A stretch of DNA of 64,000 nucleotides from Candidatus Scalinduaceae bacterium (GCA_046759445.1 JBHICG010000008.1:1-64000); one strand, 5' to 3'. Shown: positions 33,918 to 46,767, counted from the stretch's first letter. The notes: generated from the letters alone by a model not told the origin. A program made the numbers and translations.

Positions 33918-34582
33918 GACACTATTTGGGGGAGTAGGTATGGGATAAGAGTATTTAGTTTAAACAGTTTAAAACGTTCAAATCGCTTAAACAGTTTGAG
34001 CAGTTTGAACAATTTTAAAAAGGAGGGGGGGAAAGATGAGTGCAAGATATTTTGAAGATTTAGAAGTCTGGATACTCTCAAGAGAATTAACGAATAAAAT
34101 CTACAATGTAAGCAATGACGGTAGATTCGCAAAAGATTTCGGACTCCGTGATCAGATAAGAAGAGCTGCTGTTTCCATTATGTCAAACATTGCAGAAGGA
34201 TATGAAAGGGGCGGCAATCAGGAATTTATTCAGTTTTTGTCAATAGCCAAAGCCTCATGTGGAGAGGTGCGGTCACAGTTGTACGTCGCCATGGATCAAA
34301 GTTATGTTGGCAAAACAAAGTGTGAACAATTAATAGACGAATTTAAGAAACTCTCCATCATGATTAACAACTTTATCGAATATCTAAAAGGTAGCAGATA
34401 TAAAGGAATAAAGTATAAAAACAAAACGGTTTAAACCGCTTAAACCGTTTAAACGGCTCGAACGGTTCTTTAAGAGAATTGGGCAGAAACTATACTAAAT
34501 ATGTTTTGAGCAAAAAGAGTGTAAGTGTTTGTGATTAGTGAAAGAAATCCCCCATTTTCTTCACTTGCACATTCACTTACAC
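33888..34582 (+). repeat. Segmental duplication, copy 1
   Basis: Near-identical to 35421-36157. Includes the last WYL codons, the four-helix-bundle gene and its flanks. Confidence 0.92.
34036..34434 (+). CDS. Four helix bundle protein (TIGR02436 / 23S-IVS family), copy 1
   Basis: FEDLEVW...[22 protein letters not shown]...[16 protein letters not shown]. Confidence 0.93.
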
Positions 34583-34706
34583 ATTTTATATGAGCGAAAG
34601 CAGAGTTATTTAGACTTGTTATTAGCCTTGTGAATGGATAACATAAACGGCTAAAGCTGAATTAATAGAGCAATGAGCTATAATAAGATTTAAGGAGGTG
34701 ATTAAT

Positions 34707-34973
34707 ATGGTGATTATTGATAAGGAAAAAGTAAAAGATATGTATTATGCCAATATGATGTGTGAGTATCACAAGGTAACGGAAAAGATCAGACTTTTCA
34801 CAAGAAAATACTCGATGTCATTTGAACATTTTGAAAAGAACATAAAAGGATCTGAGAAAGAAGACTTTGAAAGGTGGGATGATTATATGGAATGGAAAGG
34901 GTATGAAAAAGTCTTACAGAATCTGATCAAAGAAAAGAAGGAGCTGGAAGTTGGAGATTATAAAGTGTCTTGA
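34707..34973 (+). CDS. Putative antitoxin partner of the DUF6516 protein
   Basis: AAGGAGGT RBS; KYSMSFEHFEK...EDFERWDDYMEWK motif; overlaps the next gene. Confidence 0.65.
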   Translation: MVIIDKEKVKDMYYANMMCEYHKVTEKIRLFTRKYSMSFEHFEKNIKGSEKEDFERWDDYMEWKGYEKVLQNLIKEKKELEVGDYKVS

Positions 34974-35286
34974 AAAAAGTAGTGCAGTCAAAGATTTTAA
35001 AATTCTAGTCCTTGAGTATTTTGAAGGCGGTTTCTACATAAGAATTAAAGTCACATTGAATAACAATACTGAACTGTACATAAGGGAATACTCTGACGTT
35101 AATGTACGAAACTATTCATATCACTGGCAAGAACCAAATCAGAAGTTATTGATCAGATGGGACAACTCAGCACATCACAAACATATTGAAACATATCCAC
35201 ATCATATTCATCATAGTAATAATGTCTTACCAAGTTATCAAATCTCTTGCGAGGAAATATTAAAGATAATTGAAGAGAAAATCTGA
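34951..35286 (+). CDS. DUF6516 (TumE-like) putative toxin
   Basis: YSYHWQ...LIRWDNSAHH...TYPHHIH. Confidence 0.8.
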   Translation: MEIIKCLEKSSAVKDFKILVLEYFEGGFYIRIKVTLNNNTELYIREYSDVNVRNYSYHWQEPNQKLLIRWDNSAHHKHIETYPHHIHHSNNVLPSYQISCEEILKIIEEKI

Positions 35287-35334
35287 GCAAAAAGAAGTTG
35301 AATACTTTTACCGGAAACAATGGAGGTCACAAAA

Positions 35335-35424
35335 ATGATACAAGAATTTATGAATTATCTAAATAACTCCAAAACTCACAAATCCTCCATCTCTTTAACT
35401 CTAAAGCTGAAACAGACGAAATAA
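35335..35424 (+). pseudogene. Truncated 5' gene fragment at the duplication junction
   Basis: GGAGGT RBS plus ATG gives a 29-aa ORF that ends where duplication copy 2 begins. Confidence 0.35.
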
Positions 35425-36157
35425 AAAAAATGAAGAAAATTTATCAGTAGGACACTATTTGGGGGAGTGGGTATGGGATAAAGTATTTCTGTTTAAACAG
35501 TTCAAACGGTTAAAACAGTTTAAACGGTTTTAACTTTTTTGTTAGTTAAACCGCTTGAACAGTTTGAACAATTATAAAAAGGAGGTGGGAAAGATGAGTG
35601 CAAGATATTTTGAAGATTTAGAAGTCTGGATACTCTCAAGAGAATTAACGAATAAAATCTACAATGTAAGCAATGACGGTAGATTCGCAAAAGATTTCGG
35701 ACTCCGTGATCAGATAAGAAGAGCTGCTGTTTCCATTATGTCAAACATTGCAGAAGGATATGAAAGGGGCGGCAATCAGGAATTTATTCAGTTTTTGTCA
35801 ATAGCCAAAGCCTCATGTGGAGAGGTGCGGTCACAGTTGTACGTCGCCATGGATCAAAGTTATGTTGGCAAAACAAAGTGTGAACAATTAATAGACGAAT
35901 TTAAGAAACTCTCCATCATGATTAACAACTTTATCGAATATCTAAAAGGTAGCAGATATAAAGGAACAAAGTATAAAAAGTCAAAAAATAAAATGGTTTA
36001 AACGGTTTAAACCGCTTAAACCGTTTAAACGGCTCGAACGGTTCTTTAAGAGAATTGGGCAGAAACTACACGGAAAATGTTTTGAGTAAAAAGAGTGTAA
36101 GTGTTTGTGATTAGTGAAAGAAATCCCCCATTTTCTTTACTTCACTCACACTTACAC
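35421..36157 (+). repeat. Segmental duplication, copy 2
   Basis: Near-identical to 33888-34582; differences are concentrated in the micro-repeat flanks. Confidence 0.92.
35594..36001 (+). CDS. Four helix bundle protein, copy 2
   Basis: Same protein as 34036-34434 except the last few residues; AGGAGG RBS before ATG 35594. Confidence 0.93.
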
Positions 36158-36519
36158 TAATTTCTGATTTTTGCATGAAGAACTAGAGAAATTAAAGAGC
36201 CCCCTTTAAAAAGAGGGGATTTAGGGGTGTGTTCCGATGAGAAAGAACTAAGGAGTGGCTGAAGATTGGACAAAAGAAGTTTTAATAGATTTAATTAAAT
36301 AAGATGTGTATGTGCATTGTGAAAGTAAATTACTTACCTAGTATCTGACTTCTGTGTTCTGTTGTCTGTCTTTTGATCACTTACACTTGTTTTTATGATG
36401 TATGAACCCCCAATGCTTCCTTGCCAAAAGTAGGCTCTGTAAGAGCGGAAGCAAGGAATGGGGGTGGATTTTTCGGGAATATGTATAAAAACAAAACATA
36501 GTTTCATTGCTATAAATAA

Positions 36520-44717: not shown

Positions 44718-44842
44718 ACTGTTTAAACTGCTGAAACGGAGTGTAAGTGTATGTGGTCAGTGAAAGTAAATTACTTACAGCTTTCACCTACACTCTTCAC
44801 TTACACTATAAATCTAACATCTATATTCTATTTCTAAAAACC

Positions 44843-45814
44843 ATGCAACTCGTAATCAACACTTACGGTTCTTATCTTCGAAAGAAGGAAGGTTGCTTCC
44901 TTGTTAAAAATGAGGATGGTGAGTTCGACGTATCTGTAAAAAAGGTGGATAGTATTATGATTACGACAAGTTCTTATCTTTCCACTGACGCAATAAAGAT
45001 GGCAATGGATAATAACATTGACGTTATCTTCCTTGATGATTATGGAGACCCTTACGGCAGGGTGTGGCATTCAAAACTTGGAAGTACCGTTGCAATAAGA
45101 CGCAAACAACTGGAAATGACATCTAACGAAAAAGGCCTGAATATGGCCAAGGAATGGATAATAGCAAAACTAGACAATCAGATTGAGTTCCTTACTAAAC
45201 TAAAAAACTCAAGACCAGAAAAAGAGTCCAAATTAAATGAATATAGTTCAAGACTGGGAGAAACAAAGGAAAAATTGGGAAAACTGACAGGTACAATTGA
45301 TGAAAAAAGAAACACAATAATGGGACTCGAAGGTTCTGCAGGCAGGACTTATTTTGAAGCCATTAATTACGTCATGCCAGATAGATATAAATTCGATGGA
45401 AGAAGTAAGCAACCAGCAAAGGATGAATTTAATTGTCTCCTCAACTACGGATATGGTGTCCTTTATTCAATAGTTGAAAAGGCGTGCATTATAGCAGGAC
45501 TCGATCCTTACGTTGGTTTCGTTCACACTGATAATTATAATAAGAAATCACTCGTATTCGACCTGATAGAGATGTTTAGAATTTTTGTAGACCAGACGGT
45601 TGTCTATCTCTTCAGTCAAAGGCAAGTAAAACAGGAGTATTTTGACAAAATAAAGAATGGATTGACTCTGAATAAAGAAGGAAAGGCTGTGCTGATAGAG
45701 GCGCTTAATAAGACCTTTGACAAGAGTGTCAGGTACAAGGGAAGAAATATAAAGAATAAAAATATAATTCAGTTTGAGTGCCATGCGATAGCGAATGGGA
45801 TTATCAAGTGTTAG
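44843..45814 (+). CDS. cas1: Cas1
   Basis: MQLVINTYGSYL, MGLEG.A...YF, LNYGYG.LY, GLDPYVGF.H, LVFDLIE.FR. Confidence 0.95.
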   Translation: MQLVINTYGSYLRKKEGCFLVKNEDGEFDVSVKKVDSIMITTSSYLSTDAIKMAMDNNIDVIFLDDYGDPYGRVWHSKLGSTVAIRRKQLEMTSNEKGLNMAKEWIIAKLDNQIEFLTKLKNSRPEKESKLNEYSSRLGETKEKLGKLTGTIDEKRNTIMGLEGSAGRTYFEAINYVMPDRYKFDGRSKQPAKDEFNCLLNYGYGVLYSIVEKACIIAGLDPYVGFVHTDNYNKKSLVFDLIEMFRIFVDQTVVYLFSQRQVKQEYFDKIKNGLTLNKEGKAVLIEALNKTFDKSVRYKGRNIKNKNIIQFECHAIANGIIKC

Positions 45815-45897
45815 TATAAGTAAATGGTGTAAGTGATAGGTGAAAGTGTAAGTGAATCGTATCGTTTAAGTGTATAGTGATAAGAAGGGAGATAGAG

Positions 45898-46269
45898 ATG
45901 AATGTTGATATCAAAAGTGTTGAGGATCTGGATGTTTTCAAAATGGCTCATGAACTGGTATTGAAAATATATAAGATTACAAAAAAGTTTCCTGACGAAG
46001 AGAAGTTTGGTTTAGTTTCACAAATGAGAAGAGCTGTATCATCAGTACCCATGAATTTAATGGAAGGTGGACACCGTCTTTCTTCAAAAGAGTACCGTCA
46101 ATTTGCAGGCATAGCGAACGGTTCTATAGGTGAATTTAAATATCATATACTTTTATCTAAAGACCTCAAATATCTATCAAACGATATTTACCATGAATTA
46201 AGAAATACAGCAGAAGAAATTAGCAAGATGTTAATGGGATTAATAAAATCCCTTTCAAAGAAGCAGTAA
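45898..46269 (+). CDS. Four helix bundle protein, copy 3 (divergent), between cas1 and cas2
   Basis: EDLDVFK...FPDEEKFGLVSQMRRAVSSVPMNLMEG...IANGSIGE. Confidence 0.92.
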   Translation: MNVDIKSVEDLDVFKMAHELVLKIYKITKKFPDEEKFGLVSQMRRAVSSVPMNLMEGGHRLSSKEYRQFAGIANGSIGEFKYHILLSKDLKYLSNDIYHELRNTAEEISKMLMGLIKSLSKKQ

Positions 46270-46376
46270 ATTTCGTTTTTTAGAAATGAAAGAATTTCTG
46301 TCTATAGAATTTAACTATAACCTAAAGGCATATTCACCAATACTTACACTTACACCGAACACATACACTATAAGCA

Positions 46377-46667
46377 ATGCTAACCTGGCTTGTATACGAC
46401 ATAGTTGAGACAAAGAAGAGGAATAAGATTGTAAAGGCTTGTAAGCAGTATGGTCTTTACAGGGTACAGAAGAGTGTATTCCTCGGTACACTGAATAATA
46501 ATGAAATTGATGAAATATCATTGCGATGTCAGGATATAATTGATGAGGATAAAGATTCAGTTTATATCTTTCCTTTCTGTGATGAGGATTTTAAGAAGAT
46601 TAAACTCCTGGGACAGGCATTTGACAAAAAATTGGTAAGTGATGAAATATTAGCAAAATTTTTTTAG
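46377..46667 (+). CDS. cas2: Cas2
   Basis: LVYDI...RVQKSVFLG...DSVYIFP. Confidence 0.95.
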
Positions 46668-46767
46668 TGAAAGTGTTTTGTGTAAGTGTCAGTGATTTTA
46701 CTTACACACATACGCTTATTATTACAACTTCACTTTCACTCTTACACTTACACCTACACTATCAGAA

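Follow-up and report, generated by a model that had tools for sequence, protein, structure and literature searches.

Four-helix-bundle genes boxed by periodic inverted arms, and gene-less hairpins of the same kind, at a type I-B cas locus of a Candidatus Scalinduaceae bacterium

Proteins of the PF05635/TIGR02436 family have been of unknown function since their discovery in intervening sequences (IVS) of ribosomal RNA (rRNA). The family was still termed functionally uncharacterised in 2024 (PMC11270868), and it is said to resemble Avd (PMC10053308). The rRNA IVS replace hairpin loops, and their open reading frame (ORF) was proposed to serve mobility by Ralph and McClelland, as cited in PMC4990558. 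The window analysed here, i.e., the whole 64,000-nt stretch of DNA from a Candidatus Scalinduaceae bacterium (GCA_046759445.1, JBHICG010000008.1:1-64000), belongs to a host genome (G000) of 3.6 Mb and 97% completeness. It bears three PF05635/TIGR02436 genes in a type I-B cas locus, the place to which an original prediction, made from the sequence alone, had assigned four-helix-bundle genes. The locus gives the family a testable anatomy, namely a block that comes and goes in natural populations, a motif core and period tied to the protein clade, a protein under strong selection, and gene-less satellites.

The three genes, all on the + strand, match PF05635 with E values of 7e-36 to 3e-37, far above the cut-offs of PF05635 and TIGR02436. 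The first, ivp1a (34036-34434), encodes 132 aa, has a strong Shine-Dalgarno sequence (SD; AAGGAGG) directly upstream and reaches E 6.8e-36 against PF05635 and 1e-34 against TIGR02436. A second ivp1 copy with a PF05635 match is situated at 35594-36001, and ivp3 (45898-46269; PF05635 E 2.8e-37) matches PDB entry 2gsc with E 2.3e-18. The closest solved structures of the window proteins are 2gsc and 2rld, with five chains per entry each. In the Pfam and NCBIfam profile libraries, the proteins matched PF05635/TIGR02436 and, below threshold, bAvd-like profiles only.

Cassettes, gene-less hairpins and empty junctions

The cassette located between cas1 and cas2 (cassette 3, 45803-46375) is the whole unit of gain and loss and is composed of a 5' arm, an SD, ivp3, a trailer, and a 3' arm. 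The 5' arm (45807-45880) consists of degenerate GTGTAA/GTGAAA units and contains the cas1 stop codon at 45812-45814, and the 3' arm (46333-46369) consists of TTACAC units and ends 7 nt ahead of the cas2 ATG. As predicted from their complementarity, the two hexamer arms pair across ivp3 in the minimum free energy (MFE) fold of 45800-46380 (z -2.8).

Public metagenome contigs (Logan) of four runs were compared with window positions 33500-47500. In run X2, from the same study as the probable source, a contig of 294 nt joins 45802 to 46376 with 7 other letters between; its depth is 4.6 vs. about 20 for the main form, and 166 and 121 nt are aligned on the two sides, with 15 and 7 letters different. 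In this variant, which is about 92% identical, the cas1 stop and cas2 start overlap, and ivp3 and both arms are absent. Two hairpins are likewise bypassed by X2 contigs of similar depth, the one before cas1 (44715-44835 skipped) and the one between cas2 and cas4 (46666-46779 skipped), the letters between the sides not being known, and a variant contig skips 36160-36378, the region of a composite relic described below. A contig from run X4, which represents another study and is more diverged, skips 33943-34513, that is, the first 9-mer cassette, with a shorter side of only 27 letters. Likewise, contig C3 of G000 carries a filled cassette that is absent from the same-genus genome G001 (82-nt spacer) and from G003 (34 nt), and the hairpin next to it is also absent from G001 (36 nt vs. 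125 nt). With the C29 and C22 regions of G000 as queries, DNA searches in relatives yielded no usable orthologous junction. As a separate observation, a diverged X4 contig seems to join 36232 to 43875, bypassing the whole effector module; its shorter side has 27 letters, and it may be a repeat-driven mis-lay.

Because the gene-less cas1/cas2 allele is also devoid of the arms and of any hairpin, the arms belong to the inserted unit. The cassette is gained or lost as one piece including its arms, exactly at stop/start junctions, and the truly empty site is a tight, overlapping stop/start junction without a hairpin. The expectation of filled and empty sites was therefore correct in that the polymorphism exists, both in the X2 variant and in C3 compared with G001 and G003, and incorrect in taking the gene-less hairpins for the empty sites: since the hairpins themselves are missing from the variant strain, they are separate insertions or gutted derivatives and not vacant targets.

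Regarding these hairpins, four of the five gene-less hexamer sites that had been predicted fold well, each with a GTGTAA/GTGAAA arm and a TTACAC arm. They are located at 34518-34582 (fold of 34510-34592, -28.7 kcal/mol, z -7.3), which is kept in G001; at 36094-36158 (36086-36168, -27.4 kcal/mol, z -6.4); before cas1 at 44740-44807 (44732-44815, -25.8 kcal/mol, z -4.3); and between the cas2 stop and the cas4 start at 46666-46760 (46658-46768, -24.1 kcal/mol, z -4.3), where the hairpin fits between its neighbours at -1 nt from the cas2 stop side and 8 nt ahead of the cas4 ATG. The fifth site, predicted at 36306-36387, did not hold as a hairpin: the segment 36300-36395 folds no better than shuffles (z 0.03; 95 of 200 shuffles equally good), and 36306-36390 is a composite relic made of a hexamer left arm, a TCTG-type array, and a short TTACAC end, in which 36319-36337 is identical to part of the hairpin at 44740-44807. 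The motif GTGTAAGTGNNNGTG, with at most one mismatch, has 11 matches in the window vs. 0.19 expected, all within 34.5-46.8 kb; matches in 5' arms are on the + strand and those in 3' arms on the - strand. The 3.6-Mb genome yielded no hexamer-type hairpin beyond this one locus, to which the family is confined: a blastn-short search with six arm and hairpin queries returned nothing longer than 19 nt outside the cas locus, and a periodicity scan of the genome found five other GTGNAN x4 stretches, all without a complementary arm. The gene-less hairpins are present/absent polymorphisms at neighbouring junctions, and at least some of them are gutted cassettes, as the remnants elsewhere in G000 show; for example, in the hairpin at C3:4083, some 25 nt of the cassette leader survive, inverted, within the loop.

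It could be argued that the hairpins are host punctuation acting in mRNA processing, stabilisation, or translational coupling within the cas operon, so that the hairpin is the target and genes land in its loop. The hairpins are indeed placed exactly between stop and start codons (46666-46760 in the window; on contigs C22, C24 and C3, 4-10 nt from the neighbouring genes) and have no terminator tails, and rRNA IVS take the place of hairpin loops (PMC4990558). We nevertheless judge this account distinctly improbable, given that the gene-less allele lacks both arms, that the variant strain is without the hairpins as well, and that arm units track the protein clade across phyla and contexts; moreover, the cas1-cas2 gap measures at most 33 nt in 55 of 73 related cas loci, which leaves no room for a hairpin there.

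The other two genes were predicted to be flanked by a different array with a 9-bp period, and such an array does flank both. It is of the GTTTAAAC-N type, with 9-nt units and the palindromic core GTTTAAAC; the ivp1-type array can be written (GTTTAAACN)n and the ivp3-type array (GTGTAA)n. In cassette 1a, the 5' arm (33955-34022) is composed of degenerate GTTTAAAC-N units of 9 nt (period 9 according to Tandem Repeats Finder, TRF) and pairs with 34396-34467 (score 17.5), and the 3' arm (34423-34467) is composed of TTTAAACCG/TTTAAACGG units. Cassette 1b forms part of a direct duplicate of about 730 bp (35425-36160, from 33870-34590) that encompasses the end of the WYL gene, the cassette, and the hexamer hairpin at 36094-36158. 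The two copies of the duplication bracket a TumE-type toxin-antitoxin-like pair (34698-35286; PF20126 TumE). When 1a and 1b are aligned, the ORFs differ at 1 position, while the arms show many substitutions as well as indels of 26 and 18 nt; the arms are the fastest-changing part of the cassette. A paired compensatory indel between the arms of copy B relative to copy A was considered and rejected, as 43% of 1000 shuffles were as good at pairing as the two extra segments. The relic of a 9-mer array that had been noticed at 44713-44739 is genuine: it represents three units of a 3' arm abutting the next hairpin, and 44712-44764 is 92% identical over 53 nt to a G001 junction at which a 9-mer arm is followed by a hexamer hairpin.

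The gene order within 32.8-47.4 kb starts with a WYL/WCX regulator, the first PF05635 gene, the TumE-type pair, and the second PF05635 gene, followed by the type I-B cas operon with cas8b, cas7, cas5, cas3, cas6b, an ORF6N gene, a small ORF, cas1, the third PF05635 gene, cas2, and cas4. A CRISPR array begins at 47708, and its repeats gave the only Rfam matches above the gathering score; no Rfam family matched the arms or hairpins. The ORF6N-domain gene and the ORF of 76 aa, which has no family match, occupy 43960-44717 between cas6b and cas1. At the equivalent place in locus L005 (3164-4001), an ORF6N-like gene is flanked by two CAGACAA arms of the same orientation, ahead of a PF05635 cassette. 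Just upstream of cas8b (36407-36465) lies a non-periodic hairpin repeat of about 60 nt, CCCCCAATGCTTCCTTGC ... GCAAGGAATGGGGG, with 15 further matches on 13 other G000 contigs, and it gives rise to a depth spike and many loose contig ends in the metagenome. In G001, another two-gene module without a Pfam match occupies the space between the corresponding hexamer hairpins instead of the toxin-antitoxin-like pair. In locus L111 (G001:C37:1-12000), the WYL regulator, the ivp1 cassette, the hexamer hairpins, and the leader element are conserved at about 80% nucleotide identity, and the locus continues with a type I-C operon (Cas3, Cas5d, Csd1, Cas7, a weak PF05635-like ORF, and Cas4), not with the type I-B operon of the window.

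Repeat units and protein clades in other genomes

For comparison, we used 80 loci whose Cas1 is a relative at 63-76% identity; both cas1 and cas2 are present in 73, and a PF05635 gene is present between cas6 and cas4 in 8 of the 80. Between cas1 and cas2, the genes in L007, L015, and L019 are 58-60% identical to ivp3 and carry GTG[TA]AA hexamer arms, and those in L057 and L059 belong to another clade with GACAGA-type arms; L005, L009, and L012 have the gene between cas6 and cas1, of the ivp1 type in L009 and L012. The gene-less hairpins at neighbouring junctions are built from the same unit as the cassette of their locus, with CAGACAA at cas1/cas2 and cas2/cas4 in L005 and GTTCGAAC at cas1/cas2 in L009, and L019 has a gene-less hexamer hairpin at cas2/cas4, the same junction as in the window. 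Four more cas1-IVP3-cas2 loci were found in metagenomes. Empty junctions read AAATGTTGA, the cas1 stop overlapping the cas2 start. In filled junctions, cas1 ends with AAGTGT, the arm follows immediately with the stop codon inside it, and the 3' arm ends with CACTAT, 1-5 nt before the cas2 ATG. The idea that arms are seeded from the target, based on the resemblance of the last Cas1 codons (AAA TGT) to the unit AAGTGT, proved not to be general, as the C3 unit does not occur in the empty C3 junctions. In two of the metagenome loci, L172 and L173, the 5' arm is present, the 3' arm is nearly gone, and the distance from the IVP stop to the cas2 ATG is 12-15 nt; such cassettes may have become fixed where they are. 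Archaeal Cas1 loci L030, L047, L054, and L067 have cas1-cas2 gaps of 532-803 nt without a PF05635 match.

The loci with hexamer cassettes (window, L007, L015, and L019) do not form one Cas1 clade, the constrained tree being 134 log-likelihood units worse in the approximately unbiased (AU) test (p 2.6e-9) for a group named after inspection of the first tree. Guest and host are discordant as well: L007 and L015 share 78% identity in IVP and 69% in Cas1, and L007 and L019 share 89% in Cas1 and 69% in IVP. Furthermore, L004, L011, and L018 have no cassette though their Cas1 proteins are 88-90% identical to that of L007. Adaptation modules are thus colonised time and again at the cas1/cas2 junction. 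A rival reading is that the CRISPR adaptation module recruited the gene as an Avd-like helper of Cas1-Cas2, with the repeats as regulatory sites. Its presence between cas6 and cas4 in the 8 loci and the four metagenome loci, the loss of the 3' arm in L172 and L173, as expected of a fixed gene, and the purifying selection documented below would fit recruitment; however, the gene is patchy even among those Cas1 proteins of 88-90% identity and absent in the co-occurring variant, 32 of the 36 well-flanked ivp3-clade loci have no cas gene within 2.5 kb, and the same packaging is found in many unrelated operons of G000. We regard recruitment as highly improbable.

Each paralog had been predicted to be tied to its own repeat unit and period, and this was borne out in distant genomes too. 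A metagenome scan with ivp3 gave 78 loci, and the test was limited to those with both flanks of at least 100 nt. GTGW-N2-GTGW upstream and/or WCAC-N2-WCAC downstream occurred in 29 of the 36 loci with at least 55% identity to ivp3, many of which have one genomic context in common and hence do not count as independent, the contexts represented numbering at least three; 16 of the 36 had both motifs, and none had the reverse arrangement. Below 55% identity, either motif was seen in 1 of 23 loci and both in none. Among 49 other cassettes, only the four of the ivp3 clade had both motifs. The last two positions of the hexamer vary with the base make-up of the host (GTGTAA/GTGAAA here, CGTGTC/CGTGAC elsewhere), and GTGW and the period of 6 are constant. 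Likewise, GTT[TC][AG]AAC units accompany the ivp1 clade over protein identities of 92% to 55%; within the family they occur in two or more genomic contexts, and they recur in a cas locus of Aminicenantia. Shared flank 7-mers average 24-71 at a protein identity of at least 55%, against a background of about 11.6. Compared with its orthologues, ivp1 shows ratios of nonsynonymous to synonymous substitution (dN/dS) of 0.07, 0.043, and 0.038 at dS values of 0.53, 1.6, and 1.8, respectively; the protein is under strong purifying selection. The unit therefore persists where neutral sites are saturated, and the core motif and the period are inherited with the protein clade beyond synonymous-site saturation.

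The same packaging recurs throughout G000, which has 17 PF05635 matches at E <=1e-5. Inspection of the flanks showed, for nearly every PF05635 gene, a periodic arm on the upstream side and a complementary one downstream, with a unit of 6-9 nt particular to that gene. When arm complementarity at the 13 intact genes was compared with 596 random ORFs of similar size, 9 exceeded the 95% quantile and 6 the 99% quantile, and TRF arrays of the genome form 35 inverted pairs vs. 17 direct pairs at scores of at least 14. Gene-less hairpin families of G000 include TTCGGA, GTTAAATG, CTAAAGTG, AATTGAGG, and CAAATAA. Gutted forms are found at C113:134-322 and C13:29445-29790, where an arm pair encloses no more of a PF05635 gene than its first 37-44 codons, and four further genes are broken, so that every stage between a full and a gutted cassette is represented. 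The packaging is shared by a second cargo that is unrelated: genes of the PD-(D/E)XK-like GxxExxY family (TIGR04256/PDDEXK_3; nine PF13366 matches in G000) lie in sense orientation with co-directional neighbours inside periodic inverted arms at C46:806-1156, C30:6225-6572, C90:6060-6380, C60:9107-9424, C7:2875-3213, and C106:959-1297, the arms being mostly of C[AG]CAAAG units and of GATTACAC units on C106. With ORFs of at least 100 aa taken as gene stand-ins, the upstream neighbour is co-directional for 16 of 17 PF05635 and 6 of 6 GxxExxY genes (22 of 23 in total), an orientation that fits promoter-less cargo read through from a host operon.

Proposed mechanism and its weighing

We consider it on balance probable that these units are IVS-type guest cassettes with arm-only derivatives, gained and lost as blocks between protein genes and folded out of the transcript by their arms. 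In this view, the cassettes are small and have no promoter of their own. Each consists of 6- or 9-nt units in tandem as the 5' arm, an SD with the four-helix-bundle gene, and a reverse-complementary 3' arm; the arms supply the stop codon of the host gene and stop a few bases short of the start codon that follows. In a read-through transcript, the arms would close into a stem of about 25-35 bp, looping the guest gene out and bringing the host stop and the next start together. By analogy, this stem may be a substrate of RNase III, which would make the insertion tolerable; on this part, our opinion is evenly balanced. Cutting by RNase III within the IVS stem was shown for Coxiella (PMC4990558), and G000 has an RNase III gene at C18:28301-28672. 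That the hairpins are intrinsic terminators was considered and dropped, as no + strand terminator-like site occurs at any of them. We give somewhat less than an even chance to a further component, suggested by the conserved unit core: the ring-forming protein would recognise the arms of its own cassette and thereby favour the retention or copying, for the most part local, of the cassette and of its arm-only derivatives. Recognition of the arms is a serious possibility in view of the clade specificity of core and period and of the selection acting on the protein.

Several observations weigh against the folded-out guest cassette or limit its support. At the transcript level, arm mismatches have no sense-strand G.U bias (78 sense vs. 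71 antisense; 36 of 49 cassettes, p 0.62), and the sense fold is more stable in only 10 of 19 gene-less hairpins. Such strand-symmetric mismatches fit symmetry at the DNA level or young arms as well as RNA function. As for the alleles, no clean target-site duplication of the kind that goes with insertion sequences and miniature inverted-repeat elements (MITEs) could be read, the boundaries lying within the 9-nt stop/start overlap and the empty alleles being 6-30% diverged, and the variant joints are single low-depth Logan contigs, two of the three with inter-side letters not known. The unit is not always retained, as C15-clade proteins of about 60% identity and L012 (56% to ivp1) carry other units; to this are added the near-absence of the 3' arm in L172 and L173, the shared context of many metagenome ivp3 loci, and the naming of the AU-tested group from the first tree. 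Finally, G001, which is 97% complete, has hexamer hairpins at its WYL-ivp1 locus and yielded no ivp3-clade gene (best 38% identity); hairpins therefore persist without a cognate protein.

The strand symmetry is one of the points in favour of a DNA-level alternative, in which cassettes and hairpins form an autonomous/non-autonomous pair, as do the REP-associated tyrosine transposase (RAYT) and the repetitive extragenic palindromic doublets forming hairpins (REPIN), or the subterminal repeats of En/Spm. The protein would be the element's own sequence-specific repeat-binding factor, gathering the two arms and, with a host or partner nuclease, copying cassettes and hairpins, and RNA folding would be incidental. 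Additional support comes from the clade-specific unit core and period over long distances, the strong purifying selection on the protein, the second cargo in the same packaging, and the use of the nearest filled cassette's unit by gene-less hairpins in four cas loci (three units) and on contig C3. In G000, too, most gene-less families, sorted by hand, accompany an intact cassette of the same unit, namely the five listed above and the hexamer family; a GTAACT-type hairpin on C14 does not. Nevertheless, the protein has no catalytic signature, its matches being to PF05635 and bAvd-like profiles only; the hexamer hairpins of G001 are found without an ivp3-clade gene; and unit sharing is equally predicted by internal deletion and local duplication. 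We thus rate this alternative as unlikely, while continuing to favour guest cassettes that fold out of the transcript.

For annotation, the implication is that intergenic hairpins in cas operons can be guest DNA and not regulatory signals. Should its members read their own repeats, the family would amount to a set of small, programmable repeat-binding proteins.

Comparison with known systems

The closest described system is the 23S rRNA IVS with an S23p ORF, as in helix 45 of Coxiella burnetii and in Leptospira, with which the window cassettes have in common the PF05635 family and inverted repeats enclosing the ORF in a long stem; the distribution of the rRNA IVS is likewise sporadic and horizontally spread, and gene-less IVS exist too (PMC4990558). 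In contrast, all three window cassettes are situated between protein genes and not in an rRNA helix, and no ORF-bearing insert was found in the part of the 23S gene present on contig C5. The window arms are tandem 6-9-nt units with a clade-specific core, whereas the IVS described has a unique 28-bp stem (PMC4990558), and the window cassette carries a strong SD. Excision by RNase III was shown for rRNA IVS (PMC4990558) and would apply to the window cassettes by analogy.

The REPIN-RAYT system likewise has a gene flanked by family-specific inverted repeats and gene-less derivatives elsewhere (PMC3116915, PMC3337134). The window cargo differs in not being a Y1 (IS200/IS605-like) transposase; unlike RAYT, which is typically single-copy, PF05635 has 17 matches in G000, and in place of hundreds of dispersed REPIN there is a small number of mainly local gene-less forms. 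Correia repeat enclosed elements (CREE; also Neisseria miniature insertion sequences, NEMIS) resemble the hairpins as small inverted-repeat elements inside transcription units and can be bound and cut by RNase III, altering the expression of neighbouring genes (PMC2649163). However, CREE are gene-free and have fixed-sequence inverted repeats, not tandem micro-repeats.

The Avd protein of diversity-generating retroelements (DGR) has a homologous four-helix-bundle fold, from which the window proteins are set apart by an NF033474 score of 33.5 bits vs. a cut-off of 80. DGR-like or retro-mobility through a reverse-transcriptase partner was rejected, as the 97%-complete G000 has no RVT_1 match; no template/variable repeat pair came to view, and no search was aimed at one.

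Foldback transposons of eukaryotes have inverted arms of tandem subrepeats and mostly no cargo, and the short tandemly repeated repetitive sequences (STRR) of cyanobacteria are heptamer arrays between co-transcribed genes. Literature searches, whose coverage did not extend to subscription journals, gave no link of either to a PF05635 gene and no paper on tandem-repeat arms around PF05635 or GxxExxY genes at sites other than rRNA. An integron gene cassette has a single attC hairpin each and an IntI integrase nearby, whereas, by inspection, the window arms are split around the gene.

A broader view, which we offer tentatively and hold to be rather doubtful, is that the IVS proteins with a four-helix bundle read short periodic motifs in a sequence-specific manner, one clade GTGW with a period of 6 nt and another GTTYRAAC with a period of 9 nt, so that the cassettes would be autonomous, the ring-shaped protein would bind both of its own repeat arms, and the gene-less hairpins would be non-autonomous satellites. 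If this were true, the locus would exemplify a mobile system of bacteria in which repeats are paired with a reader protein that is not an enzyme, and of which the rRNA IVS, the DGR Avd, and possibly the cyanobacterial heptamer repeats would be special cases.

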